A DNA stretch of 64,000 bases, from the NCBI GenBank assembly GCA_038314665.1, contig GCA_038314665.1_3677.1; one strand, written 5' to 3'. The stretch comes from a phage. Below are positions 19,302-38,130 of the stretch, in pieces (the first letter of the stretch is position 1; the number at the start of each line of letters is the position of its first letter). The notes under the pieces were generated by a model. The model did no database searches and was not told the DNA's origin. It saw only the letters and a list, made by a program, of their open reading frames with translations. The translations under genes were made by a program, and so were the position numbers.

Positions 19302-22300
19302 TGCCAATTGCAATGATTGATAACATCGTTGCTTCTGCAAGATCTTCAAGTTATGACTGGAACGCATCCAAGGCAGCTCTGGCTGACAGCCTGAACACTG
19401 TTACCACCAGAACTCTGGATAAGATTTTTGAGGGCAACAAATCTTACAGAAGTCAGCAAGATAGACAAAAGCTTCTCAGATCTTCTGCTGCACCCTGCTC
19501 TGTAGTGTATGGGAAGACACGCACGTCTGGGCTGCTTGCGTTTTTGGAGCAGGACAGAGACAGAACCCTCCATTGTGCCATTGTTCTTGCTAATCATCCT
19601 CTGGAAGGTATAGAAGACATACTCATCGACGGTAATCCTATTTCCTCGTATGGAGATCTGGTATCGTGGGAGCTACATAACGACAGAAAAACATCTGATC
19701 CTTTCATGGGTACACACTGCCCATCGTGGTCACCAGATATGATAGGCAGAGGTATCAGTTGGCTGCGTGCCAGCTTCAAGTTTGACCCCAGTAAGTTTCC
19801 TTTTGGGTTGCCAAACGTTACACTGGTCAAGGTTGGTAAAAAATGCTATGACCCCCGCATCAGTAAAGAGGTGTATACCAATAACGCGGCCTTGGTGATC
19901 CTGGACTATTTAAGAACGTACCTTAAATGTCCTGACGAAACCATCAACTGGGAGTCCTTTAGGGAGGCTGCCAATATATGCGACGAGGCGGTAAAAAACG
20001 CTGACGGAACCAGTGAGCGACGTTACACCATTAACGGTGAGTTTGACATGGATGAGGCCCCAGCAAGTATTATGGCAGAAATGCTGAAAGCTTGCGGTGC
20101 AGACCTTAGTTATGTTGCTGGTAAGTATGGTTTGCTGGTTGGTGCATACTATGGCCCAGCAACAATGACACTGAGTGAGGATTGTGTCTGTGGTGAGGTC
20201 AAGATCTATCCGGAAGCCTCCTTTGACAAGAGATCCAACACAATAACTGGCAGATTCACTAGTCCGACCAAAGGGTATTCTGAAACAGATTTTCCATCAG
20301 TGTTTGTCCCAGAGTGGATAGAGAAGGATGGAGAAAGAAAGATAATTGATATAGACTATCGCTTTGTTACCAGTCCTTATCAAGCTCAGCGTGTTTCTGC
20401 AATCTTCTTAAGACGTGCTAGAGCTGGCAGGATTATTGAAGTCACCTGCAATATGCGAGGTTTTAAATTTAAACCTGGCCGTTACGTTACAATGGACCTT
20501 CCAAGTATTGGTATAGTAGGCCAAGAAATGAGGGTTCTTGAATGGGAGTTCACCAAAAAGGGCGGTGTCAAGGTAAAACTTCGTCAAGATGCTAAAGAGT
20601 GGAATGATGCCACAGGGCAACTTCCGGATTCTGGTGATGTAGATATTCCGATATCTCCATCTGGTGTAGCTCAACCGCAAAACTTCAGATATTCCGTTCT
20701 CCAAGCCGGGGAAGTAACTCACGGTGTTTTGGCTTGGGACAACGTTGGAACTTACGCTCAAAATATTGTGCAGGTAAGAAAGAACGGAGAGATTGTTTGG
20801 ACAGCACAGACAGTTGAGCAGTTTGTCCGAGTAGAAGGCTTGACCAAAGGATCATACACAGCAACCGTGGTTGCAACATCTTATAAAGGTGGTGTATCTC
20901 CAGAAGCGTACTGCGAGTTCAACATTCAGGCACCTGAAGCTCCTGTTTCTGTGGAAGTTAAGCAGGGATACTTTGCTATTACCCTGATCCCGCACAGCAG
21001 AGACTTGGCTAGTGTAAGCACCCAGTACGACTTTTGGACATCTGGGATGACAAGATTGCCAGATACCAGTGATGTAACAGTTACTTCAAAAGCCACTCGT
21101 ATGGGTGTTGGTTCAACTTGGACATCTGAAGGTCTGCAGAACGATAAGATTTATTACTGGTATATCAGGACAACAAATGCTTTTGGTTCATCTGCTTTTG
21201 TGGAGTGTGCAGCCCACTGTTACACATCCATAGAAGATCTTATGCCACAGATTGATGCTGAGTTCAAAAAGACAGAGACTTATAAAGAGCTTACCGCCAA
21301 TCTTGATAATGCAGTCAAGGAAATGGATAAAAATGTTGGTGCAGTCAATGACCGTGTTACTAGCATTTTTGAAGAGCTTGGGGATACAATAGAGGGTGTT
21401 GTCAGAGAGACGACAGAAAAATTTACAGGGGTTAATGGAGAAATTTCTGCCCTTAACAGTAAGCTGGTAGCAGCTCAGCAATCCTTTGACGATAAACTTG
21501 CAGCAGAGTCTGGTAGGCTTGGGTCACTAATCGAGACAACAAATAGATCAACCGTTGATCTTGTTAATCGTAAAACTCAAGCATTGAGTGAGCAAATAAC
21601 TGCAACTCAAGGTACTCTGCGGGAAGAGTTGAAGAACACTGAGAGCAAACTTAACTCCTCTATTCAAGAAACCAACAAGGCAACAACCGATCTGCTAAGT
21701 AAGACAACGGAAGCTATTAAGCAGGATCTGGTGGCAGCTACAGGGAAGATCACCAAGCTGGAAGATGATGTGCAGAAAGAGGTTGCCAATCTGCAAGCAT
21801 CTATTCAAGAAACTAATAGTACAACAGTTGATCTTGTTAATAATACAGCCACAGCGATCCGTCAAGAACTTACCTCTGCAAAACAAGAAATTGTTGACGA
21901 AATGGGTAATATTGATGAGCTCAGGGCTACAGTATCTAATACCTCTAAAGCTGTAACAACACTTGAGGGTAAAATAGATGCTCAGTGGGGAGCTAAGATT
22001 CAGGTTGACAGCCATGGTAATAAATATGTGGCAGGTATCCAGCTGGGCATGGAGGGGTCTGGAGGACAAGTTCAATCATACTTCATGGTTAGTGCAAACA
22101 ACTTTGCGGTATATAACCCCGGAAATGGAACAGCAACCCTTGCTTTCGCAATCAAGAACAACCAAGCGTTCTTGAAAGACGCTTTTATAGAGAATGGCAC
22201 GATCTCCTCTGCCAAGATCGCACAAGAAATTTCGTCAAACAACTACGATGGCAACGGGTACCATAAATACGGTTGGTATATTAACAAGAACGGGCATGCC

Positions 22301-22900
22301 CAATTTATGGATGTGTGGGTGAAAGGCAACATCAACGCCAGTTCTGGTAACTTCACAGGGGCAGTTAATGCCACTAGTGGTACCTTCCGTGGAGATGTTT
22401 ATGCCAATAATGGTAGCTTTAGAGGCACCATAGATGCAACCGGAGGTACATTCCGTGGTCGTGTAGAAGCTTCTGTTATCCGTGCTAACCAGTTCGAAGG
22501 TGCAATTGTTGCACACAGGACTTACGGAGATTGTGCTCCAGTGCATAACTCCCAGCAGAGGGTTTGCCGTTGGAGGTGGAGATACGTAGATAACGTTTCA
22601 GGTCAAGGTAAGAACGTAACATTCTTCTTTAAACTGAACGGTACTCGTGCCAACTCCCAACTAAATGCGTGGATAGCTGGTCATCAACTCCTTGCTGGCA
22701 AGAAGTACGGGAACGACAACGATGGCATGTGTGCAATTGGGATAACAGGTCTAGGTGAACAAACTATAGACATTATTATTGAAATCTACACCCCGTGGTC
22801 AACGTCAAACGTGACAGGTGTCACAATCTCCTGTCCCACTGTGATCGTTAGTCGTTCTAACTCAAGCTTCCAGGGACCTTGGAACGAGTCTCACGACTAA
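19301..22900 (+). CDS. large tail tip/host-specificity protein (gpJ-like) with coiled-coil repeats and C-terminal fibre repeats
   Basis: 1199 aa; central region resembles J-type tail tip proteins; internal repeats (IQETN..TVDLVN), GTFRG-type C-terminal repeats. Confidence 0.5.
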   Translation: MPIAMIDNIVASARSSSYDWNASKAALADSLNTVTTRTLDKIFEGNKSYRSQQDRQKLLRSSAAPCSVVYGKTRTSGLLAFLEQDRDRTLHCAIVLANHPLEGIEDILIDGNPISSYGDLVSWELHNDRKTSDPFMGTHCPSWSPDMIGRGISWLRASFKFDPSKFPFGLPNVTLVKVGKKCYDPRISKEVYTNNAALVILDYLRTYLKCPDETINWESFREAANICDEAVKNADGTSERRYTINGEFDMDEAPASIMAEMLKACGADLSYVAGKYGLLVGAYYGPATMTLSEDCVCGEVKIYPEASFDKRSNTITGRFTSPTKGYSETDFPSVFVPEWIEKDGERKIIDIDYRFVTSPYQAQRVSAIFLRRARAGRIIEVTCNMRGFKFKPGRYVTMDLPSIGIVGQEMRVLEWEFTKKGGVKVKLRQDAKEWNDATGQLPDSGDVDIPISPSGVAQPQNFRYSVLQAGEVTHGVLAWDNVGTYAQNIVQVRKNGEIVWTAQTVEQFVRVEGLTKGSYTATVVATSYKGGVSPEAYCEFNIQAPEAPVSVEVKQGYFAITLIPHSRDLASVSTQYDFWTSGMTRLPDTSDVTVTSKATRMGVGSTWTSEGLQNDKIYYWYIRTTNAFGSSAFVECAAHCYTSIEDLMPQIDAEFKKTETYKELTANLDNAVKEMDKNVGAVNDRVTSIFEELGDTIEGVVRETTEKFTGVNGEISALNSKLVAAQQSFDDKLAAESGRLGSLIETTNRSTVDLVNRKTQALSEQITATQGTLREELKNTESKLNSSIQETNKATTDLLSKTTEAIKQDLVAATGKITKLEDDVQKEVANLQASIQETNSTTVDLVNNTATAIRQELTSAKQEIVDEMGNIDELRATVSNTSKAVTTLEGKIDAQWGAKIQVDSHGNKYVAGIQLGMEGSGGQVQSYFMVSANNFAVYNPGNGTATLAFAIKNNQAFLKDAFIENGTISSAKIAQEISSNNYDGNGYHKYGWYINKNGHAQFMDVWVKGNINASSGNFTGAVNATSGTFRGDVYANNGSFRGTIDATGGTFRGRVEASVIRANQFEGAIVAHRTYGDCAPVHNSQQRVCRWRWRYVDNVSGQGKNVTFFFKLNGTRANSQLNAWIAGHQLLAGKKYGNDNDGMCAIGITGLGEQTIDIIIEIYTPWSTSNVTGVTISCPTVIVSRSNSSFQGPWNESHD

Positions 22901-24507: not shown

Positions 24508-25194
24508 ATGGCAGAGATTAAGTCGGATGTTAACCACATCCACACTCTGCCAGATTTTGTTCAGGGGGGTCTTGACTACCTGCCTGGAGATTTTCTGGCT
24601 GAGAAGGTTAATTTAGTCACATTCTTAACCGTGTACCTTAAAAGGTTGGAGGATGTTGATAAGATGCTGGTAGGTTTGGCTGAAGGAAGATTGCTTAACA
24701 ATGCCAGCGGAAGATACCTTGACGAAGTTGGTAATCAACTCGGTATTCTTAGGAATGGACTTTCAGATGCTGATTTTCGTGCCACACTAATTATTCAGCA
24801 GGCCGCAGCATCAAGGGGCGGGACTCGCGAAGATGTCATCTCCACCTTGCGACAATTGTTCGGAAGAGACAATTTCGATACGTGGAAAGGAGACAACTTC
24901 AGGTTTGACATAAATATTAGAAAAACTTGCTTTGACATATTGCAGTCTATTGATCAGATCTTAGACATGCTACCACTGCCTTGTCATTTGCGTCTTACAG
25001 AATCGCAAGGGCAAGCTTTTGGTTTTGAAGGTGACTCTACAGCTCTTGGCTTCGGATCAGTGTGGGAAGAAAGCCAATTCGGAGTTGGTGGGCTGGCTAC
25101 TTTGCTGTATGTTCCTGACGTAAGACCTGATTGGGACACCACAACCATTTATTGTGAAAGTATTACAGTAAACGCAACTAGACAGGAGGGTTAA
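24508..25194 (+). CDS. baseplate protein (tail protein I-like)
   Basis: 228-aa ORF directly after the J-like gene, the usual position of gpI-type wedge proteins. Confidence 0.4.
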   Translation: MAEIKSDVNHIHTLPDFVQGGLDYLPGDFLAEKVNLVTFLTVYLKRLEDVDKMLVGLAEGRLLNNASGRYLDEVGNQLGILRNGLSDADFRATLIIQQAAASRGGTREDVISTLRQLFGRDNFDTWKGDNFRFDINIRKTCFDILQSIDQILDMLPLPCHLRLTESQGQAFGFEGDSTALGFGSVWEESQFGVGGLATLLYVPDVRPDWDTTTIYCESITVNATRQEG

Positions 25195-27266
25195 TGGCAA
25201 CAGCTGTTTTTAAACCTTACCGTGATTACTCTACAATGGCTGCACGGTTTCATTACCGCACAGTTCAGGATACTGCCGTTCCTGGTAGGGATTATGATCA
25301 TGTTGAGGGCGATATAACTATCCCAGTTGGGGCAACCAGTATTGAGATCCCAGTGGAAATTGTTGACAAATTACCCAACAGGTTACCAAGAAGCTTCTTT
25401 ATGGAGTTTTCATCAAAATCCCAAGGGGTGATGATTGGGACACAAAGGGCGAAATGTACAATAGTTTCAGATGAGAATCTTGACAGGATATCTTGGGATA
25501 CTGTCGAGGAGAGAATGTTTCACCCAAGATACTGGGTTACAACCACCCAGCAGACTGAAAGTACCTGTATTGTTGCAGATGACAACTGTTGTATTAACCG
25601 TTTAGTGTCAAGAACATATGGAGGTATGGCTGGGTGCATTTGGGAAACAGTTGACAAGTATGACCATTTCGGTATTGGGTTTGATGATCACTATGAGATG
25701 AGAAACACCAAGCTTTGGTTCAGAATGTCAATAACCAATGCCAGCAACTTCTCCACTCCTGAAAAGATGATTATGACTGTAGACCTTGTTGATGGTACAA
25801 TCATCTATGTTCCTTTAGCTCAATATGCTGTCAGCATCTCAGAGGATAAGAATGTTGCAGAGATTCATATTGATTTCGAGGACTGCGTCGGGATGGATCA
25901 GAACAACAACATGATGGGTGTTGATCCTCGACAGGTGAGAAGAATTTTAATACCGCTCATGCCTAAAGACTGGGTAAGTAATAGCACAGACCCGAGAACG
26001 GAAAATGTAGAGTGTGAGTTGCGCCTAGATCTGCTTCAGCCAGACACGGGCTGGAAAATGATGCAACTTAACAATATTCAGGTTAAAGAGCACGACGTTG
26101 GGATCTGCACCGCATATGACGATATGTGGAACGTATCTCCTTTAAGGGTGTTGAACAATATCAAGCGTCTGGGCTATACCGGAACCATAAACCATTATGT
26201 TGGTATGAGTCATTATTATGACTACACATGGTCAGGAACCCAATGGTCTATAAACAGAACAGGAGCGCTAAACGCTGCAGCTTATAAATGGCATGATGAT
26301 TTTATGTACAATGCCAAACGACATAACTTCGACGTTATGCAGTCTGTAAGTTTTGAGCTTTACAGCGATGCCTGCCCGTTGGAATGGACCCAAAGAGACT
26401 GGAATGATAACTACGCTAAAACAGGATATACACCTTGTAGCTACCTCCTGTCTCCAACCATTGAAGAGGGTATGAATTTCCTTACTGCAGTATTTAAGAA
26501 TTTTGCATCAGCCGCTATGAGAAACAACCTGCCAGTGATTATGCAGGTTGGTGAACCGTGGTGGTGGTACAATACCGATACTCGCAGACCTTGCATTTAT
26601 GATTACCCTACAAAACAGGCGTTTTATGATGAGACAGGCGAGTATGCCTTAGATATTGGGACTATTGACGATCCTAAAACTGGCGGTGTTTACGACAAGT
26701 ATGTAGCATTTTGTCGTGGTAAGCTTGGCGCTCGTATTGCGGCTATTTCAAAGGCAATAAAGGCACACGCTGCATCAGCTCAGATGACAGCTCTGCTGTT
26801 TTTCCCAACCATTATGGAAACCGAGCTTACGCAAAAGCTGAACCTTGCTGACCAATATAAAAAAGAAGCAGGTACTCTTGATTTCTTCTGCACTGAGTGC
26901 TACGATTGGGTGATGCAGGGAGGTATTGAAAAGGCAAAAGAGTCTGTAAACATACCTATCGTTAAGTTAGGTTGGCAACCGTCTGAAATACAATACCTTG
27001 CAGGGTTCGTTCCTAGTAAAGAGCTTGCTCCGGTATATGGATACGACCCAACTAGGAATTACCAAGAATTTTTATGGAGATGTATTTGCGGAAACATGGC
27101 AACTATAGAGTATAGATACCCTGAGGTAAAACAGTATGTGTGGGCATACCCGCAAGTAATGTCTGACAGCATCACTGTTACCGCTAGAGATTCTACCGTG
27201 CTTCATATGGGGCAGGTTGCTCTGAAAGGGTATGTAGAAGATGTTGTCCCGCCAGACTTCTCATAA
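25194..27266 (+). CDS. large baseplate/tail-associated protein, possible enzymatic domain
   Basis: 690-aa ORF, start overlaps upstream stop; Trp-rich C-terminal half (GEPWWWY); no catalytic motif confirmed. Confidence 0.35.
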   Translation: MATAVFKPYRDYSTMAARFHYRTVQDTAVPGRDYDHVEGDITIPVGATSIEIPVEIVDKLPNRLPRSFFMEFSSKSQGVMIGTQRAKCTIVSDENLDRISWDTVEERMFHPRYWVTTTQQTESTCIVADDNCCINRLVSRTYGGMAGCIWETVDKYDHFGIGFDDHYEMRNTKLWFRMSITNASNFSTPEKMIMTVDLVDGTIIYVPLAQYAVSISEDKNVAEIHIDFEDCVGMDQNNNMMGVDPRQVRRILIPLMPKDWVSNSTDPRTENVECELRLDLLQPDTGWKMMQLNNIQVKEHDVGICTAYDDMWNVSPLRVLNNIKRLGYTGTINHYVGMSHYYDYTWSGTQWSINRTGALNAAAYKWHDDFMYNAKRHNFDVMQSVSFELYSDACPLEWTQRDWNDNYAKTGYTPCSYLLSPTIEEGMNFLTAVFKNFASAAMRNNLPVIMQVGEPWWWYNTDTRRPCIYDYPTKQAFYDETGEYALDIGTIDDPKTGGVYDKYVAFCRGKLGARIAAISKAIKAHAASAQMTALLFFPTIMETELTQKLNLADQYKKEAGTLDFFCTECYDWVMQGGIEKAKESVNIPIVKLGWQPSEIQYLAGFVPSKELAPVYGYDPTRNYQEFLWRCICGNMATIEYRYPEVKQYVWAYPQVMSDSITVTARDSTVLHMGQVALKGYVEDVVPPDFS

Positions 27267-27278
27267 TCAGGAGATAAA

Positions 27279-28319
27279 ATGTCAAAACCTAGTTTTCCAT
27301 TAGAGATTTGGGCAGAGGAGGATCAGGTTCTGCCTAACACCCACAGACAGAACAGGCTACGCCCGATTGATGATTTGTGGAGAAAAGGTTGGGATCTTGG
27401 TCAAAAGCCCTCATGTGAAGAACTTAACTATATTTTCAATATGCTCGGAACTTGGGCAAAATACATTGCTGACGAGCAGATCCCCGCTCAAGAAGGTCGT
27501 TATCTGGTACGTGATAATAACTTGAGTGATCTTTTGAACATCCCTGTTGCCCGTAGAAACCTTGGGATTATTACTAAGGAAGAGGCAGACGCCAGGTATG
27601 TAAAAGTTACAGGTGATACAATGACAGGCCCCTTGGGTTTGCAACGTATCAACTTTAAAGCTGCCGAGACAGATAAGGCTTGGATAGAGACAACTATTGG
27701 CCCAGATAAGACAACTCTCGACTTTGGGTTAAGTGATAATACCGGGTCGTTTGATGATGGTGGTACATCTACAGTAGATGCGTTCCGTTGGAGATTCCAG
27801 CCAACTCAGCCGGATATTAATCCAGAGTTCACTTTGATGTACCTTAACGCGATCACGGCTAACCGTGCGATGTTGAAAGTGGTAGGCAATGTTGAAGTTG
27901 TCGATAACATGAGGTGCAATAACCTTACTATCAGCAATACAGCAACATTCACCAACTGTAATGTGGCCAGTCAGTTGACGGCTGGGTCAGTATATGTTAA
28001 TGGTGGTGCAAGTTGTGACAGTATGGTTGTAAGAAGCCAGCACTGTGTTGTCGGTAACAGAAATGTGGTGCGCTCTGTGAATGGGGTGACGGCTAACGGT
28101 AACGGTGATGTAACAATCACTATCCCGCAGACAGGTGTGCAAGACATCAGAATCGGTGCAAGACTTGTTGACGGCGTTTCTGAATCTCCAATTCGCAACG
28201 GCTACGTTGTCACAGGTTGGCATTTCGGTGACAAAAAAGAGATGCGTGGTTCAACCTACTGGGCAGGACCTTTACAAAAACTTGTAAATGGTCAATGGAT
28301 CACTGTTAATTATGCATAG
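27279..28319 (+). CDS. tail fibre protein (copy 1 of a duplicated pair)
   Basis: 346 aa; fibre motifs LSDLLNIPVARRNLG and GDTMTGPLGLQRI; C-terminus QKLVNGQWITVNYA shared with the 29334 ORF. Confidence 0.6.
   Translation: MSKPSFPLEIWAEEDQVLPNTHRQNRLRPIDDLWRKGWDLGQKPSCEELNYIFNMLGTWAKYIADEQIPAQEGRYLVRDNNLSDLLNIPVARRNLGIITKEEADARYVKVTGDTMTGPLGLQRINFKAAETDKAWIETTIGPDKTTLDFGLSDNTGSFDDGGTSTVDAFRWRFQPTQPDINPEFTLMYLNAITANRAMLKVVGNVEVVDNMRCNNLTISNTATFTNCNVASQLTAGSVYVNGGASCDSMVVRSQHCVVGNRNVVRSVNGVTANGNGDVTITIPQTGVQDIRIGARLVDGVSESPIRNGYVVTGWHFGDKKEMRGSTYWAGPLQKLVNGQWITVNYA
28275..28304 (+). repeat. 30-nt direct repeat (copy 1), identical to 30333-30362
   Basis: caaaaacttgtaaatggtcaatggatcact read at both positions, at the 3' ends of the two paralogous fibre genes. 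Confidence 0.8.
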
Positions 28320-28333
28320 ATCGGAGGACTAGC

Positions 28334-28918
28334 ATGAAAATACTTCAAGAGTTTAAACTTTACCAACCGGGATCTGGCGAATACCTCCCCAACAAGGGAA
28401 CCAAGGAGCTGACCCCTCAAGAGGTTGAGGATTACACTGCATACACTGGGTATTTTTTACGTAATGATGATGGCGATTGGTATGTGCAGTCACGAACATT
28501 ACGACAAGAAAATCCTGGTTGTATCTTCCTACTTGTTGACGAGAAGGGAATTCTTAAGACATCTACAGAAGAACCTGATGCCCTATGGCCTGCTCCAGGT
28601 CTTCGTGTGGTTATCGCCAAAAAAGAAGAGGTACCAGAAAACATTATGCTTCACCACGACGCTTTGCGTTTAGTTGGTGATGAATTTGTCACAGACAATG
28701 AATTCTTTGTTCAACAGGCAGAGGGTGTCATAGAGACAGAACTTGCTTGGGCTACTGCTAGAATTGGTGCCTATCAAGACATGATTGACCTTGAATATGA
28801 TCTTACTGATGACCAGAAACGTAACATCAGAGATTTGAAAATGTACAGGGTAAAACTTCTTGAAATAGATACATCTAAAGCCCCTGACATTTTCTTCCCG
28901 GAGCGACCTACCCTCTAA
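28334..28918 (+). CDS. tail fibre assembly protein (Tfa-like chaperone)
   Basis: 194 aa; C-terminal RDLKMYRVKLLEIDTSKAPDIFFPERP resembles the conserved C-terminus of tail fibre assembly proteins; directly downstream of a fibre gene. Confidence 0.6.
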   Translation: MKILQEFKLYQPGSGEYLPNKGTKELTPQEVEDYTAYTGYFLRNDDGDWYVQSRTLRQENPGCIFLLVDEKGILKTSTEEPDALWPAPGLRVVIAKKEEVPENIMLHHDALRLVGDEFVTDNEFFVQQAEGVIETELAWATARIGAYQDMIDLEYDLTDDQKRNIRDLKMYRVKLLEIDTSKAPDIFFPERPTL

Positions 28919-28929
28919 GAGGAGGTGTT

Positions 28930-29244
28930 GTGGAGTTGGATTTGGCGGCATTGTACGGTATCTGCATGGGTACCGTTGTCCCGATCTGTGTATGGGCTTT
29001 CAACCAGTGGCACACCAAATGGAAAGGCATTTCCAAGAGGTTGGATGAACTGGAGAAAGACCTCATCTTAGTGAAAAACAGTATGGTTACAAAAGATAAA
29101 CTTGATTCTATTATCGAGACCCGGTTAAGCAAGCTAGAGGCCGATATTAACGACCTTAAGCAGGATGTTAGGACAGATGTCTCCGGCATCAGAGCTGATG
29201 TACAAAAGATTTTGCACATGCTTGTAGAGCATAGTAAAAGGTAA
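28930..29244 (+). CDS. small membrane protein with N-terminal TM helix and C-terminal coiled coil
   Basis: 104 aa; hydrophobic LAALYGICMGTVVPICVWAF followed by heptad-like charged region; GTG start with GAGGAGG RBS. Confidence 0.4.
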   Translation: MELDLAALYGICMGTVVPICVWAFNQWHTKWKGISKRLDELEKDLILVKNSMVTKDKLDSIIETRLSKLEADINDLKQDVRTDVSGIRADVQKILHMLVEHSKR

Positions 29245-29249
29245 ACAAA

Positions 29250-29285
29250 GGTCAGGACGGAAAGGACTCCGTTCTTGCATTTTGT
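29250..29285 (+). terminator. weak hairpin terminator candidate
   Basis: GGACGGA/TCCGTTC stem with one wobble followed by TTGCATTTTGTT. Confidence 0.3.
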
Positions 29286-29333
29286 TCACTAAAGTGTTAA
29301 AATAGTCCTAAGGAATTTTCTCAGGAGAACGTG

Positions 29334-30377
29334 ATGACTAAACCAGTTATCTCTCTTGATATTTGGGCCAATCAGGATGTTGTGCTTGAAAATACGGGAG
29401 AATTGAATAAGTCCCAACCAAAAAAAGAAGAGAGACTGAAAGGTTGGGATATGACACAAAGAGTGGCATGTGAAGTTGTTAACTTTGAACTTCACATGCT
29501 TTCTGCGTGGTTAAAGCATTTAACAGAAGATGTTGTCCCAGGATGGGATAATAGATTCTTAAGGGTCACTAATAATCTGGCAGACGTTCCAGACAAAGCT
29601 GCTGCACGTCAAGTTCTCAATGTATACTCGCCTGAAGAAATGGATGACCTTTATGTTGACAAGGCTGGAGACACAATGATCCAGACTCAAACTTTAGGTC
29701 TTCAAAGAATCGAGTTTGCATCCGCGTCAACAGACAATGCGGCGATATACACCACCATAACTTCAGACAAGACGATGATGGATTTCTGGATTATGGACAA
29801 CATCGGTGGTGCTGACGGCACAGACCTTGATGATCCCTCTCACCAAATAGACGGTTTCCGTTGGAGATTTCAACCTTCTGGTGGGCAGCCTGTGTTTTCA
29901 GCTATGAAGCTCAATGCTATAACTGCCAACCGTGCAAGACTGGCTATCCAAGGAAATCTTGAATGCAACGACGCAAAAAGTTCCTCTACAAATGCCAATG
30001 CAGCTACTATACCAAGAGCCACTGTTAATGGACAACAATCCTGTGGAAGCGCTCAAATAGGTGGAAGAGTTGATTGTAACGATGAAACCGTCAGGGGCCA
30101 ATATGCAACAGTTGGTGGAAGAAACGTGGTCCGCAGGGTAAATGGTAACAGCGCAGACGGTATTGGTAACCTTACTATCCCTATGCCCAGCAGAGGGGTT
30201 GATGATGTGAGGATAGCAAACCGTTTCAAAACCACCTACAGAGAGTCAAGAGTCTACCCTGGACATGTGATGTGCTCGGGTAACTACGCTTATAAACACC
30301 CTTATCAAGGTGATTACTGGACAGGTGCTATCCAAAAACTTGTAAATGGTCAATGGATCACTATATCTTATGCTTAA
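29334..30377 (+). CDS. tail fibre protein (copy 2 of the duplicated pair)
   Basis: Paralogue of 27279..28319 (shared GDTM..LGLQRI, FRWRFQP and C-terminal QKLVNGQWITISYA); ATG 29334 with AGGAGA RBS. Confidence 0.6.
   Translation: MTKPVISLDIWANQDVVLENTGELNKSQPKKEERLKGWDMTQRVACEVVNFELHMLSAWLKHLTEDVVPGWDNRFLRVTNNLADVPDKAAARQVLNVYSPEEMDDLYVDKAGDTMIQTQTLGLQRIEFASASTDNAAIYTTITSDKTMMDFWIMDNIGGADGTDLDDPSHQIDGFRWRFQPSGGQPVFSAMKLNAITANRARLAIQGNLECNDAKSSSTNANAATIPRATVNGQQSCGSAQIGGRVDCNDETVRGQYATVGGRNVVRRVNGNSADGIGNLTIPMPSRGVDDVRIANRFKTTYRESRVYPGHVMCSGNYAYKHPYQGDYWTGAIQKLVNGQWITISYA
30333..30362 (+). repeat. 30-nt direct repeat (copy 2), identical to 28275-28304
   Basis: Same 30-mer as copy 1, read directly. 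Confidence 0.8.
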
Positions 30378-30388
30378 AAAGAGGGTAA

Positions 30389-30655
30389 ATGAAACTAACT
30401 CAGTTTTTATGGGGACTGGTTGCGGCATCTGATGACCCTACGAAAGTGTCCCAATCTAAGCTATGGTCAAACATAGGTATGGCGGTGATGACTGGGGTGT
30501 TTATTCATATGGGGTATAATGATACGCTTCCTGAATGGTATGCGTGGATATATGCGCCTTCGGTAGCTTGCCCCCAGCTTATTAGCAAATTCATCTCGCT
30601 CCGGTGGGGTTGCCAGCACCCTGACCACGTTAAAAACGAAGAGCAAAAAGCTTAA
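30389..30655 (+). CDS. small putative membrane protein
   Basis: 88 aa with one hydrophobic segment (IGMAVMTGVFIHMGY); GAGGG RBS; sits between fibre genes. Confidence 0.35.
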   Translation: MKLTQFLWGLVAASDDPTKVSQSKLWSNIGMAVMTGVFIHMGYNDTLPEWYAWIYAPSVACPQLISKFISLRWGCQHPDHVKNEEQKA

Positions 30656-30664
30656 GGAGAAATC

Positions 30665-32410
30665 ATGGCGCAAGACATGACAAGCTTTGAGCAGGCGGTA
30701 GATCAAGTAATTGTTGATTCTGAACGTTTGCACTTGATTGTCAACGGTAACGCTGTGGATGAAGTTGTCGTAGAGGATGGGACCACCATCCCTACGGTAC
30801 GAAAAGCCATGCTTGACACCCTTTATTTTAAAACGCCACCAATCCCTTGGGCGTATGGTGCATCCACAACAGTTTTTAACCAGTTGTATGAGTTTAAAGG
30901 GGATACAGGCACTCAGTGGTGGTACGCTCCAGCAGCATCAAAATCTAACCCGGTTAGGATGCCAGCAGATCCTTCACAATCTCCGAACTGGAGATTATAT
31001 ACCGATTCTGCAGTAATGGCAAAATACTACGCAAAACTTAACAGTCCAAGGTTCGAAGGTGACCCGAGAGCACCTACACCTCCAATGGACGATAAGTCTG
31101 AGTCTATAGCAAACACAGAGTTTGTTGTTGACTATGTTGATAGTATATTTAAAGCCATGGAGGGGATGAAAGTTACTGTAGGATCTTTGGTGGTAAAAGG
31201 TCTTACAGAACTCGCTAACACCATAGTTGGTGGTACCCTTACCTTACATGGACCTGTTAATGGGGCAGATTCTACTGCACGCTTTAGGAATCTAATCCTT
31301 ACGGCAAATACTTCTACACTTACTTTTGCGTGGAGCGATCCTAAGCATGCAGACTGGAGGAGTACAGAGCTGCAACCTCATGAAGTGTCCACCCACAGGG
31401 TTATAGCCGACACTATAACTTCTGGGAAACCAGTGGCTAATAACAACGATGTACATTTTGATGGTCTTGGTAATAACTTTTTTGACTACGTGTACATTCG
31501 TGGTAATGCCATGAAGGCAGCAACCGAACCGACATTGCAGGTCGATGGGACCACCAGGGTTAAGAACCTTGAGGTGACAGGTACCGTTACAGGGATAACC
31601 TACTCTGTCGATGGCACCATGATCTACCCTAGCTATATCGAAAGCACGGGTGATGCATTGATAAATGGCGATTTGGAGGTTGGCGGGTCTGTAGTTATTC
31701 GAGGAACAGCCTCTATCCAAAATATAGCTCTGAATACTCTAAGAGTCAATGAGCGTGCAACTTTTGAAGGGGAAGGGCTTACAGCTAATAAAGGTACAAT
31801 TACCGAGCTGACAACCACCACTTTAACTGCAACAACTGCAAACTCTGAAAACTGCAACGTTACCAGAAACTTGCAGGTAAATGGAGATGTTAGTTTAAAC
31901 GCAGCAGGGACGGGCACCACCTACCTTCACAATCTTGAAATATCCGGCACAGTGACCGGATGGCTGCCAGACTTCTCTAATGTCAATTTTGTCTGTAATG
32001 GCATTAACTCCAGTGGTAAGATAACCACCTCTCAAGAAATTGAGGCTGGTAAAACCATCACTGCACCTACTTTCCACGCAGGGAAGGTAGATTTCGATTT
32101 AGAGGAGGTTGACGCGTCCAGTGGGACATGGACACCTAACGGGCAGGCCAGTATGTATGTTGTCCACGCGAAAGGGGATTTTACAATAGGGCAGTGGCCT
32201 GGGACATCAGCGGAAGATAAACCTTATCCATTCACTGCGGTTATCTATGTAATTCAGGATGCTGTAGGTCACAACGTGACTTTGCACGATAAGTATGCTA
32301 TCCTGTCGGCAACACCTGTTATTAACAACAAGGCTAACAGTGTTACCTTGCTGCAATTAACGTATTGTGGTGTTGGTGATATCGTAGATGTAGTAATTGC
32401 ACAACGTTAA
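30665..32410 (+). CDS. tail fibre protein (P2 gpH/Mu S-like N-terminal motif)
   Basis: 581 aa; N-terminal SPRFEGDPRAPTPPMDDKSESIANTEFV matches the conserved N-terminal motif of myovirus tail fibres. Confidence 0.6.
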   Translation: MAQDMTSFEQAVDQVIVDSERLHLIVNGNAVDEVVVEDGTTIPTVRKAMLDTLYFKTPPIPWAYGASTTVFNQLYEFKGDTGTQWWYAPAASKSNPVRMPADPSQSPNWRLYTDSAVMAKYYAKLNSPRFEGDPRAPTPPMDDKSESIANTEFVVDYVDSIFKAMEGMKVTVGSLVVKGLTELANTIVGGTLTLHGPVNGADSTARFRNLILTANTSTLTFAWSDPKHADWRSTELQPHEVSTHRVIADTITSGKPVANNNDVHFDGLGNNFFDYVYIRGNAMKAATEPTLQVDGTTRVKNLEVTGTVTGITYSVDGTMIYPSYIESTGDALINGDLEVGGSVVIRGTASIQNIALNTLRVNERATFEGEGLTANKGTITELTTTTLTATTANSENCNVTRNLQVNGDVSLNAAGTGTTYLHNLEISGTVTGWLPDFSNVNFVCNGINSSGKITTSQEIEAGKTITAPTFHAGKVDFDLEEVDASSGTWTPNGQASMYVVHAKGDFTIGQWPGTSAEDKPYPFTAVIYVIQDAVGHNVTLHDKYAILSATPVINNKANSVTLLQLTYCGVGDIVDVVIAQR

Positions 32411-32418
32411 TATATCTA

Positions 32419-32446
32419 ACCGCTCCTGACGGGGCGGTTTTCTTAT
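32419..32446 (+). terminator. rho-independent terminator
   Basis: ACCGCTCC-TGAC-GGGGCGGT hairpin followed by TTTCTTATC. Confidence 0.65.
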
Positions 32447-38094: not shown

Positions 38095-38130
38095 AAATAA
38101 AAAAGGGGCCGTTTGGCCCCTTTCTTTTTA
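38095..38130. terminator. bidirectional rho-independent terminator between convergent genes
   Basis: AGGGGCC-GTTT-GGCCCCT hairpin flanked by an A-run upstream and T-run downstream. Confidence 0.8.

Follow-up and report, generated by a model that had tools for sequence, protein, structure and literature searches.

A putative displaced lysis module within predicted late tail fiber operons of an rV5-like coliphage

Class II holins, such as the S68 pinholin of phage 21, contain two transmembrane domains (TMDs) and adopt an N-in/C-in topology. In the virulent phage T4, the holin gene t is located directly after the tail fiber genes 37/38, far from the endolysin gene e. A distinct lysis protein, the “releasin” gp25 of phage Mu, was described in a study where S68 served as a control: gp25, a DUF2730 protein of 99 amino acids (aa), has an N-out/C-in topology in which four residues reach the periplasm and a domain faces the cytoplasm; its gene lies a few genes downstream of the endolysin gene (PMC9239132). 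For DUF2730 proteins paired with soluble endolysins, that study lists unknown roles (PMC9239132). Here we analyze two small genes, encoding proteins of 104 and 88 aa, embedded among tail fiber genes in a 64,000-nucleotide (nt) stretch of phage DNA (GenBank assembly GCA_038314665.1, contig GCA_038314665.1_3677.1), hereafter the window. The 5.3 kb around both open reading frames (ORFs) are 97-98.5% identical to more than 100 rV5-like phages (Vequintavirus). The window belongs to an rV5-like Vequintavirus coliphage, in reverse orientation relative to the rV5 record, and we use the rV5 names, gp31 for the 104-aa protein and gp29 for the 88-aa protein.

Sequence comparisons suggest, with moderate confidence, that gp31 and gp29 form a displaced lysis module within predicted late tail fiber operons, gp29 being a candidate holin and gp31 a putative membrane-tethered accessory. 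We are more confident that gp29 is related to lysis than that it is the hole-former, and less confident of the role of gp31. The case for gp29 comes from its family. The protein matched phrog_1322 (“membrane protein”) over positions 1-87 of 87 (E=2.7e-32), and a PHROG scan assigned all 60 of the 60 family representatives to phrog_1322. Members are 70-125 aa long and share the consensus G-K-x-S-H-T-K-x-W-S-N-I-G, followed by helix 1, a short loop, and helix 2 ending in S-K-F-L-S-x-K-Y-G, with a basic residue conserved ahead of helix 1 and variable, hydrophilic, charged tails of 5-78 aa. An extra, strongly hydrophobic N-terminal transmembrane (TM) helix, present in 9 of the 60, makes these members resemble class I holins in layout. 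Pfam DUF2644, which has no assigned function, weakly matched 4 of the 60 (best E=6e-5), and one metagenomic homolog is so named; for gp29 itself, the Pfam scan gave no match at E<=0.1, DUF2644 included. No papers on DUF2644 or phrog_1322 turned up in literature searches.

The genomic neighborhoods of distant gp29 relatives are those of lysis genes. In Bise, a B3-like Pseudomonas phage, the gene order is Mor, M15 endolysin, phrog_1322 member (E=1e-19), i-spanin, a TM and coiled-coil protein, gp26-like protein, and small terminase; the start of the phrog_1322 gene overlaps the stop of the endolysin gene, and the M15 endolysin lacks any TM segment. Between the endolysin and spanin genes, there is no other gene for a free membrane protein, which leaves the phrog_1322 product as the sole candidate for the holin position. 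A motif scan of IMG/VR yielded 239 confirmed phrog_1322 relatives, and 80 loci were analyzed using our own ORF maps and neighbor clustering, with PHROG scans of the cluster representatives. An endolysin of the GH108, M15 (two kinds), or amidase type was encoded immediately upstream on the same strand in at least 21 of 54 loci, and the downstream gene encoded a spanin of the Rz-like type, with an N-terminal TM segment and a coiled coil, in about 24 of 41. Among the scanned representatives, several endolysin or amidase families were found on the upstream side and numerous Rz-like spanin families on the downstream side. Among the endolysin representatives inspected from these loci, none had an N-terminal TM or signal-anchor-release (SAR) segment; therefore, these endolysins would need a hole-forming holin. 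Two helices and a charged tail in a small membrane protein encoded between spanins and soluble endolysins of unrelated types make up the classical holin signature. A lysis role as holin, which an earlier sequence-only reading of the window had named as an alternative, thus gains support for the 88-aa protein, as a candidate, from the gene neighborhoods of its distant relatives.

Several side observations were made in these genomes. The o-spanin of Bise is an unannotated, proline-rich ORF (L010:5511-5693) with the lipobox LAVSAC, nested in the i-spanin gene. In several Mu-like loci (L057:3741-3986, L080:3801-3983, and L082:290-472), an ORF of about 60-80 aa lies just 5' of the phrog_1322 gene or overlaps it; this ORF, whose product has a signal-like N-terminus and a highly basic tail (…KRGKSGVAAAKRAARRRKARRS), may encode another component of the lysis cassette. 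In the T4-like phages Moby and ACP17, the phrog_1322 homolog stands alone, in opposite orientation to the replication genes, an uninformative context. The homolog in Stenotrophomonas phage Moby (L012:4866-5249, plus strand; hidden Markov model [HMM] E=8e-18) is followed by an annotated plus-strand terminator; the record annotates instead an overlapping hypothetical gene, CPT_Moby_033 (L012:4880-5140, minus strand), which is a probable wrong-strand call. In Acidovorax phage ACP17, the homolog is flanked by the DNA polymerase and dUTPase genes and carries the annotation of a 145-aa membrane protein.

AlphaFold2 (AF2) modeling of gp29 from a 60-sequence alignment produced a hairpin of helices 22-43 and 49-73 with additional short terminal helices (predicted local distance difference test [pLDDT] score, 80.9). 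Residues 72-88 form a hydrophilic charged tail with three K/R, three D/E, and three His residues, and a ribosome-binding site, GAGGG, precedes the ATG start. The sequence-only reading had assigned one hydrophobic segment to this protein; this description holds only in part, as AF2 and hydropathy point to two helices of weak to moderate hydrophobicity instead of one segment. The best 19-residue Kyte-Doolittle (KD) value is 1.05, with best values ranging over 1.05-1.27. Many relatives exceed gp29 in hydrophobicity, the median best 17-residue KD values of the 60 representatives being 1.35 and 1.26 for the two helices. Based on the model, gp29 is likely to insert into the membrane, with a predicted N-in/C-in topology; we consider this likely, not proven, because the KD values are low and the published TMHMM/Phobius table for rV5 (Kropinski et al.) assigns no TMD to gp29.

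The other lysis genes of this phage group were located in rV5. The endolysin, ORF89, is lambda-R-like and has no N-terminal hydrophobic (TM/SAR) segment, on which basis a pinholin/SAR-endolysin system was rejected. The spanins are encoded by ORF67/66, beside the terminase gene, with Rz-like PHROG matches (E=1e-47 and 3e-22); ORF66/67 are designated the rV5 spanin pair in the CB7 paper (PMC7344957) and are named likewise in RefSeq. For the holin, Kropinski et al. offered ORF129, a guess from TMHMM alone, and the BASEL annotation offers a different guess, bas54_0115. Both belong to narrow PHROGs of unknown function and lie outside the transcription units of the structural genes, in the midst of short ORFs. 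Thus, the rV5 lysis gene set lacks an established holin, and gp29 is a better candidate than ORF129 or bas54_0115 because it lies in a predicted late operon and its family occupies the holin position elsewhere. Directly after the rV5 endolysin gene, behind a predicted sigma-70 promoter and outside the window, lies the 68-aa ORF90 (L096:810-1016), with a signal peptide-like N-terminus (MKDFLLAILFMAACLACGVVFAG…), which is not of the two-TM holin type.

The second protein, gp31, starts with GTG, with the ribosome-binding site AGGAGG 4 nt upstream, and matched phrog_5345 over its full length (positions 1-104 of 104; E=8e-49). The N-terminal TM helix noted in the sequence-only reading holds up: residues 5-24 reach a KD value of 1.9 in a 19-residue window, gp31 is listed as a membrane protein with “1 TMD” in Table S3 of the rV5 genome paper (Kropinski et al.), and AF2 predicts helices 5-49 and 55-103 (pLDDT, 88.5). 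The anchor is preceded by the acidic MELD and followed by KWKGISKR, with four basic residues; by the positive-inside rule, these flanking charges predict an N-out/C-in topology, with about 4 periplasmic residues and a cytoplasmic helical hairpin of about 80 residues. This layout is retained in PVP-SE1 gp44, the Certrevirus homologs, phi92 gp149, and the homolog from Aeromonas phage phiA009, and the hydrophobicity of the anchor is kept throughout the family. Pfam and PHROG scans of gp31 returned weak coiled-coil matches (fibritin, gp58-like) far under the family cut-offs, those in Pfam amounting to sub-threshold noise.

Relatives of gp31 appear in the same Mu-like cassettes as those of gp29. 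The gp31 HMM detected ORFs combining a TM segment and a coiled coil in the Mu-like loci L057 and L082 (E ~1e-4). A gp31 profile restricted to Vequintavirinae aligned with a profile of 22 Mu-like sequences in HHalign at 89% (E=2e-6); the 74 aligned columns cover the anchor too, and the Mu-like profile was built without members of the gp31 family, so this test is independent of the HMM search. As controls, the gp31 profile scored 0.4% with i-spanins and 0.7% with DUF2730. The Mu-like family is encoded on the same strand as the phrog_1322 gene and 0.45-1.0 kb from it in 32 of the 80 loci; in 30 of these 32, it is found on the downstream side, between the spanin genes and the gp26-like and small terminase genes, which is the position of Mu gp25. 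That the gp31 and gp29 families are neighbors in two genome contexts unrelated to each other speaks for a common function. The family includes the phrog_462 “lipoprotein” of Bise (L010:5734-6009, 92 aa); despite this PHROGs label, the Bise protein consists of an N-terminal anchor and a coiled coil and occupies the gp25 position. In locus L016, a true DUF2730 protein is found in the gp25 position together with phrog_1322. Membership of gp31 itself in DUF2730 was rejected: gp31 and five relatives gave no HMM match at E<=10 and about 1% in hhalign, compared with 2.5e-13 for Mu gp25 and 1.8e-14 for the metagenomic L016 protein as positive controls. A search for loci related to Mu gp25 itself yielded copies of 94-100% identity only.

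Both ORFs lie, as the sequence-only reading had placed them, between fiber genes; the ORF map, PHROG and Pfam matches, and the rV5 annotation agree on an arrangement in which they are interleaved with short tail fiber paralogs, a fiber assembly gene, and a fiber gene, all on the plus strand, in the order gp33, gp32, gp31, gp30, gp29, gp28, and then the 1875-aa gp27. The features of this region are as follows.

27279..28319, plus strand: short tail fiber paralog 1 (rV5 gp33); phrog_4465 tail fiber, E=6e-171, and rV5 annotation; first gene of the sub-operon ending with gp31
28334..28918, plus strand: tail fiber assembly protein (rV5 gp32); Pfam Caudo_TAP, E=1.3e-11, phrog_136, and synteny
28930..29244, plus strand: 104-aa protein (rV5 gp31), GTG start; phrog_5345, E=8e-49; proposed membrane-tethered cytoplasmic lysis accessory
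28942..29001, plus strand: predicted N-terminal membrane anchor of gp31, codons 5-24; KD of 1.9 over 19 residues and flanking charges
29254..29275, plus strand: terminator-like hairpin 3' of gp31, from a pattern scan; weak, with 8 pairs and an interrupted T tract
29282..29318, plus strand: predicted late promoter P030, GTGTTAAAATAG motif in the window sequence, upstream of gp30-gp29-gp28
29334..30377, plus strand: short tail fiber paralog 2 (rV5 gp30); phrog_4465, E=9e-163, rV5 annotation, and cassette comparison
30389..30655, plus strand: 88-aa protein (rV5 gp29), ATG start; phrog_1322, E=2.7e-32, and AF2 hairpin; proposed holin
30452..30517, plus strand: gp29 helix 1, codons 22-43, from AF2, alignments, and hydropathy; preceded by the family motif S-x-x-K-x-W-S-N-I-G
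30533..30607, plus strand: gp29 helix 2, codons 49-73, from AF2; kink at Cys61-Pro62, ending in the invariant L-R-W-G
30665..32410, plus strand: tail fiber protein (rV5 gp28); phrog_4549, E=6e-251, and rV5 annotation; last gene of the P030 unit
32418..32439, plus strand: Rho-independent terminator (rV5 t028), scan with 9 pairs, 6 of them GC, and Table S4 of Kropinski et al.; closes the gp30-gp29-gp28 unit

Table S4 of Kropinski et al. lists P030 as a predicted late promoter at rV5 22274-22310, from which the window sequence differs by one base, and t028 as a terminator. The gap after gp31 is 86 nt long and holds both P030 and the weak hairpin; the number of terminator-like hits in the region is no higher than expected from shuffling, so the hairpin at 29254-29275 is only suggestive. 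The placement of P030, t028, and the hairpin assigns gp31 and gp29 to predicted late fiber operons.

Relatives of gp31 occur in 224 phage records and those of gp29 in 369, and the gp29 family forms 63 clusters (50% identity) among 1.8 billion representative proteins; with so many relatives, neither is a chance ORF. Homologs of both at 25-55% identity occur in Vequintavirinae (rV5, PVP-SE1/Seunavirus, and CR3/Certrevirus), phi92-like phages, and Phapecoctavirus. The two sequences are kept although the neighboring fibers differ among these genera, as do the receptors according to the CB7 paper; this conservation across genera identifies gp31 and gp29 as conserved core genes, not variable morons. 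A word-indexed protein search with both proteins retrieved close relatives only. In PVP-SE1, DU_PP_IV, SSBI34, and A73, the gene order is fiber, assembly protein, gp31-like protein, a four-TM protein of about 150 aa (phrog_7451), gp29-like protein, and fiber. The same three genes are present in Aeromonas phage phiA009, where the middle, 146-aa multi-TM ORF (L011:4472-4912) lacks annotation; the three-gene cassettes span L003:6001-7070, L007:4001-5081, L008:4001-5089, L009:4001-5071, and L011:4130-5264. The four-TM protein has no homolog in rV5-like genomes, where a second short fiber paralog with its own late promoter stands in place of the four-TM gene of the relatives. In phi92, the gp31 analog gp149 also follows the assembly protein, and the gp29 homolog gp144 is encoded 5' of the baseplate wedge genes.

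In the lysis scenario suggested by these comparisons, gp29 would be made late in infection, enter the inner membrane as a hairpin of two helices whose N- and C-termini are both cytoplasmic, accumulate, and then open holes. These holes would give the soluble lambda-R-like endolysin ORF89 access to the murein, after which the separately encoded spanins ORF67/66 would break the outer membrane. Using its N-terminal helix as a tether, gp31 would most likely work at the cytoplasmic face on the timing or efficiency of lysis, possibly through an interaction with gp29.

Several points weigh against this scenario. No endolysin or spanin gene is found near gp29 and gp31 in the window; adjoining endolysin and spanin genes were seen for the phrog_1322 relatives in Mu-like phages, not in the window or rV5. 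The helices of gp29 are weakly hydrophobic and were not called as TMDs in the published TMHMM/Phobius analysis. Among the matches of the 60 representatives at E<=0.01, there was no curated holin family (Pfam Phage_holin_*, NCBIfam), and the NCBIfam scan gave no match for the gp29 family. Searches of the PDB with both family profiles returned coiled-coil or chance matches only; Foldseek comparison of both AF2 models with BFVD found uncharacterized relatives only, the “holin”-labeled matches having E>1 and amounting to noise. The IMG/VR loci were selected by motif and include some near-duplicates, so the counts are not independent samples. Some Mu-like cassettes encode a second small membrane protein (e.g., L085 3755-3982); phrog_1322 could therefore be an antiholin or accessory rather than the hole-former. 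The apparent link between gp31 and the Mu-like family comes down to a single profile-profile score, 89%, in coiled-coil-rich sequence. Finally, gp31 stays beside the fiber assembly gene even in phi92-like phages, where the gp29 homolog is four genes upstream; this synteny would fit a fiber-related role as well and keeps morphogenesis alive as an alternative.

An extension of the lysis module, which we regard as a rather speculative possibility, is that the gp31-like and gp29-like proteins, joined by the four-TM protein in PVP-SE1-, CR3-, and phiA009-like phages, form an unrecognized multi-component holin system. If so, such a system would be common to Mu-like temperate phages and rV5-like virulent myoviruses, and a hairpin protein in the releasin position would control a two-helix holin serving soluble endolysins, a new logic of lysis timing. 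It would also tell what proteins in the releasin position do without a SAR endolysin.

Less probable than the lysis module is a role in fiber or baseplate morphogenesis, with gp31 as a membrane-tethered coiled-coil chaperone or scaffold acting with the assembly protein on the short fibers and gp29 as an accessory. At every rV5-, PVP-SE1-, CR3-, and phi92-like locus examined, and at that of Aeromonas phiA009, a gp31-like gene comes after the Caudo_TAP gene, both small genes share predicted operons with fiber genes, and small coiled-coil fiber chaperones exist, e.g., T4 gp57A. However, relatives of both families are found within Mu-like lysis cassettes, far from fiber genes, neither protein is similar to known fiber chaperones in Pfam or PHROGs, and we know of no role for a membrane anchor in fiber folding.

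Superinfection exclusion or receptor masking, where gp29 or gp31 would block the receptor or DNA entry to further phages of the same type, appears unlikely. This was the function put forward in the sequence-only reading, by analogy with T5 Llp, and it is not supported by our analysis. Llp is a lipoprotein with a signal peptide, T4 Imm belongs to the Pfam family Imm_superinfect, and both are products of early genes. Like gp29 and gp31, they are small envelope-associated phage proteins, and Llp is encoded beside a receptor-binding gene, as gp29 and gp31 are; furthermore, PHROGs classifies phrog_1322 under “moron, auxiliary metabolic gene and host takeover,” and the Moby and ACP17 homologs lie beside the DNA polymerase gene, roughly in the place of T4 imm. 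However, the homolog in Moby and ACP17 is oriented against the replication genes around it, and neither gp29 nor gp31 has a signal peptide or lipobox, gp31 beginning with the acidic MELD and lacking a basic n-region. A relationship between gp29 and Imm was rejected (0.7% in hhalign for the gp29 family profile; no Imm_superinfect match). Both genes lie in a predicted late, not early, operon and are conserved across genera with different fibers and receptors, and the gp29 family is tied to lysis cassettes elsewhere.

It is improbable that gp29 and gp31 are minor virion components, as their location in the structural module, the labels “putative structural protein” (I29), “structural protein” (ESCO8), and “tail fiber protein” (HMD-6 and inoa), and the weak coiled-coil matches of gp31 to fibritin and gp58-like proteins might suggest. 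Those matches score well under the family cut-offs; in the virion proteome of CB7, the wedge, the baseplate, and both flanking fibers were found with 10-19 peptides each (19 for each flanking fiber), whereas CB7_32-35, the assembly protein and three small proteins, were not detected. The rV5 mass spectrometry file likewise contains no gp29 or gp31 peptides, although mass spectrometry is poorly sensitive to small hydrophobic proteins, so these negatives are not conclusive; the 2026 cryo-electron microscopy paper on phi92 does not mention gp144 or gp149.

The spanin role that the sequence-only reading had allowed for the 104-aa protein is effectively refuted: an N-terminal TM segment followed by a coiled coil is indeed the layout of an Rz-like i-spanin, with a periplasmic coiled coil, but the flanking charges of gp31 (acidic N-flank, +4 C-flank) predict, albeit only predict, the opposite topology, no embedded, overlapping, or adjacent lipoprotein or lipobox ORF accompanies 28930-29244, gp31 has no Rz-like PHROG match and scores 0.4% against an i-spanin profile in hhalign, and rV5 already possesses the Rz-like pair ORF67/66.

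Some features of the window and related records are reported separately. The 690-aa protein encoded 5' of the short fiber gene (rV5 gp34; 25194-27266) matched TIM-barrel and N-terminal domains of “non-contractile tail sheath protein” (E=4e-79 and 7e-13) and contains a Calx-beta domain as well; in BASEL, it is labeled a lateral fiber with glycosidase/deacetylase domains. Between about 38000 and 46000, the guanine-cytosine skew changes sign, flipping at about 38 kb and reverting at about 46 kb; the change coincides with the strong terminator that follows gp27 (38102-38123) and with a block of genes on the opposite strand. Among the GenBank “Campylobacter phage” records MG065635-MG065682, 16 to 21 are 97-98% identical to Escherichia coli rV5-like phages over the region; their Campylobacter host label looks doubtful, and they might be contaminating coliphages.

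Phages of the rV5-, PVP-SE1-, and phi92-like groups belong to the most frequently isolated coliphages and have a place in collections for biocontrol and therapy. For their holin, the literature offers two differing guesses, neither backed by homology. The two ORFs were already known, under annotations as hypothetical, membrane, tail fiber, or structural proteins; we think that the last two labels are wrong, and caution is warranted in annotating the gp29 and gp31 ORFs as tail fiber or structural. A lysis assignment for gp29 or gp31 was not found in the literature searched. The proposed lysis module would give a likely role to phrog_1322, merely a “membrane protein” in curated libraries, and would tie a second uncharacterized family to the releasin position in cassettes with soluble endolysins, a question left open by the Mu paper.

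Among the known systems, gp29 most resembles class II holins, such as S68 of phage 21: it is small, with two predicted helices of which the first is weakly hydrophobic, a basic residue before helix 1, and a charged hydrophilic C-terminal tail, it is encoded by a predicted late gene, and its relatives are found in cassettes beside endolysin and spanin genes. Unlike S68, gp29 shows no similarity to Pfam or NCBIfam holins and has no dual-start motif. Pinholins serve SAR endolysins, whereas the endolysins of rV5 and of the loci containing gp29 relatives are soluble; therefore, large holes would be needed. The resemblance of gp31 to Mu gp25 includes a length of about 100 aa, the predicted N-out/C-in topology with about 4 periplasmic residues and a cytoplasmic helical domain, a predicted late gene, and the gp25 position of its putative relatives in Mu-like phages. 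However, gp25 frees a SAR endolysin, whereas the rV5 endolysin has no SAR domain, and gp25 is encoded within about five genes downstream of the endolysin, which does not apply to gp31 in rV5-like phages but is true of the Mu-like relatives. The T4 holin T, with 218 aa, one TMD, and a large periplasmic domain, has no homology to gp29. At the level of genome organization, the likeness to T4 is closer: both are virulent myoviruses with scattered lysis genes, the holin gene of T4 ends the tail fiber cluster, and rV5-like phages, too, possess rIIA/rIIB. By analogy, T4 gene t may be taken as a precedent for a holin gene located beside fiber genes in a phage with scattered lysis genes.

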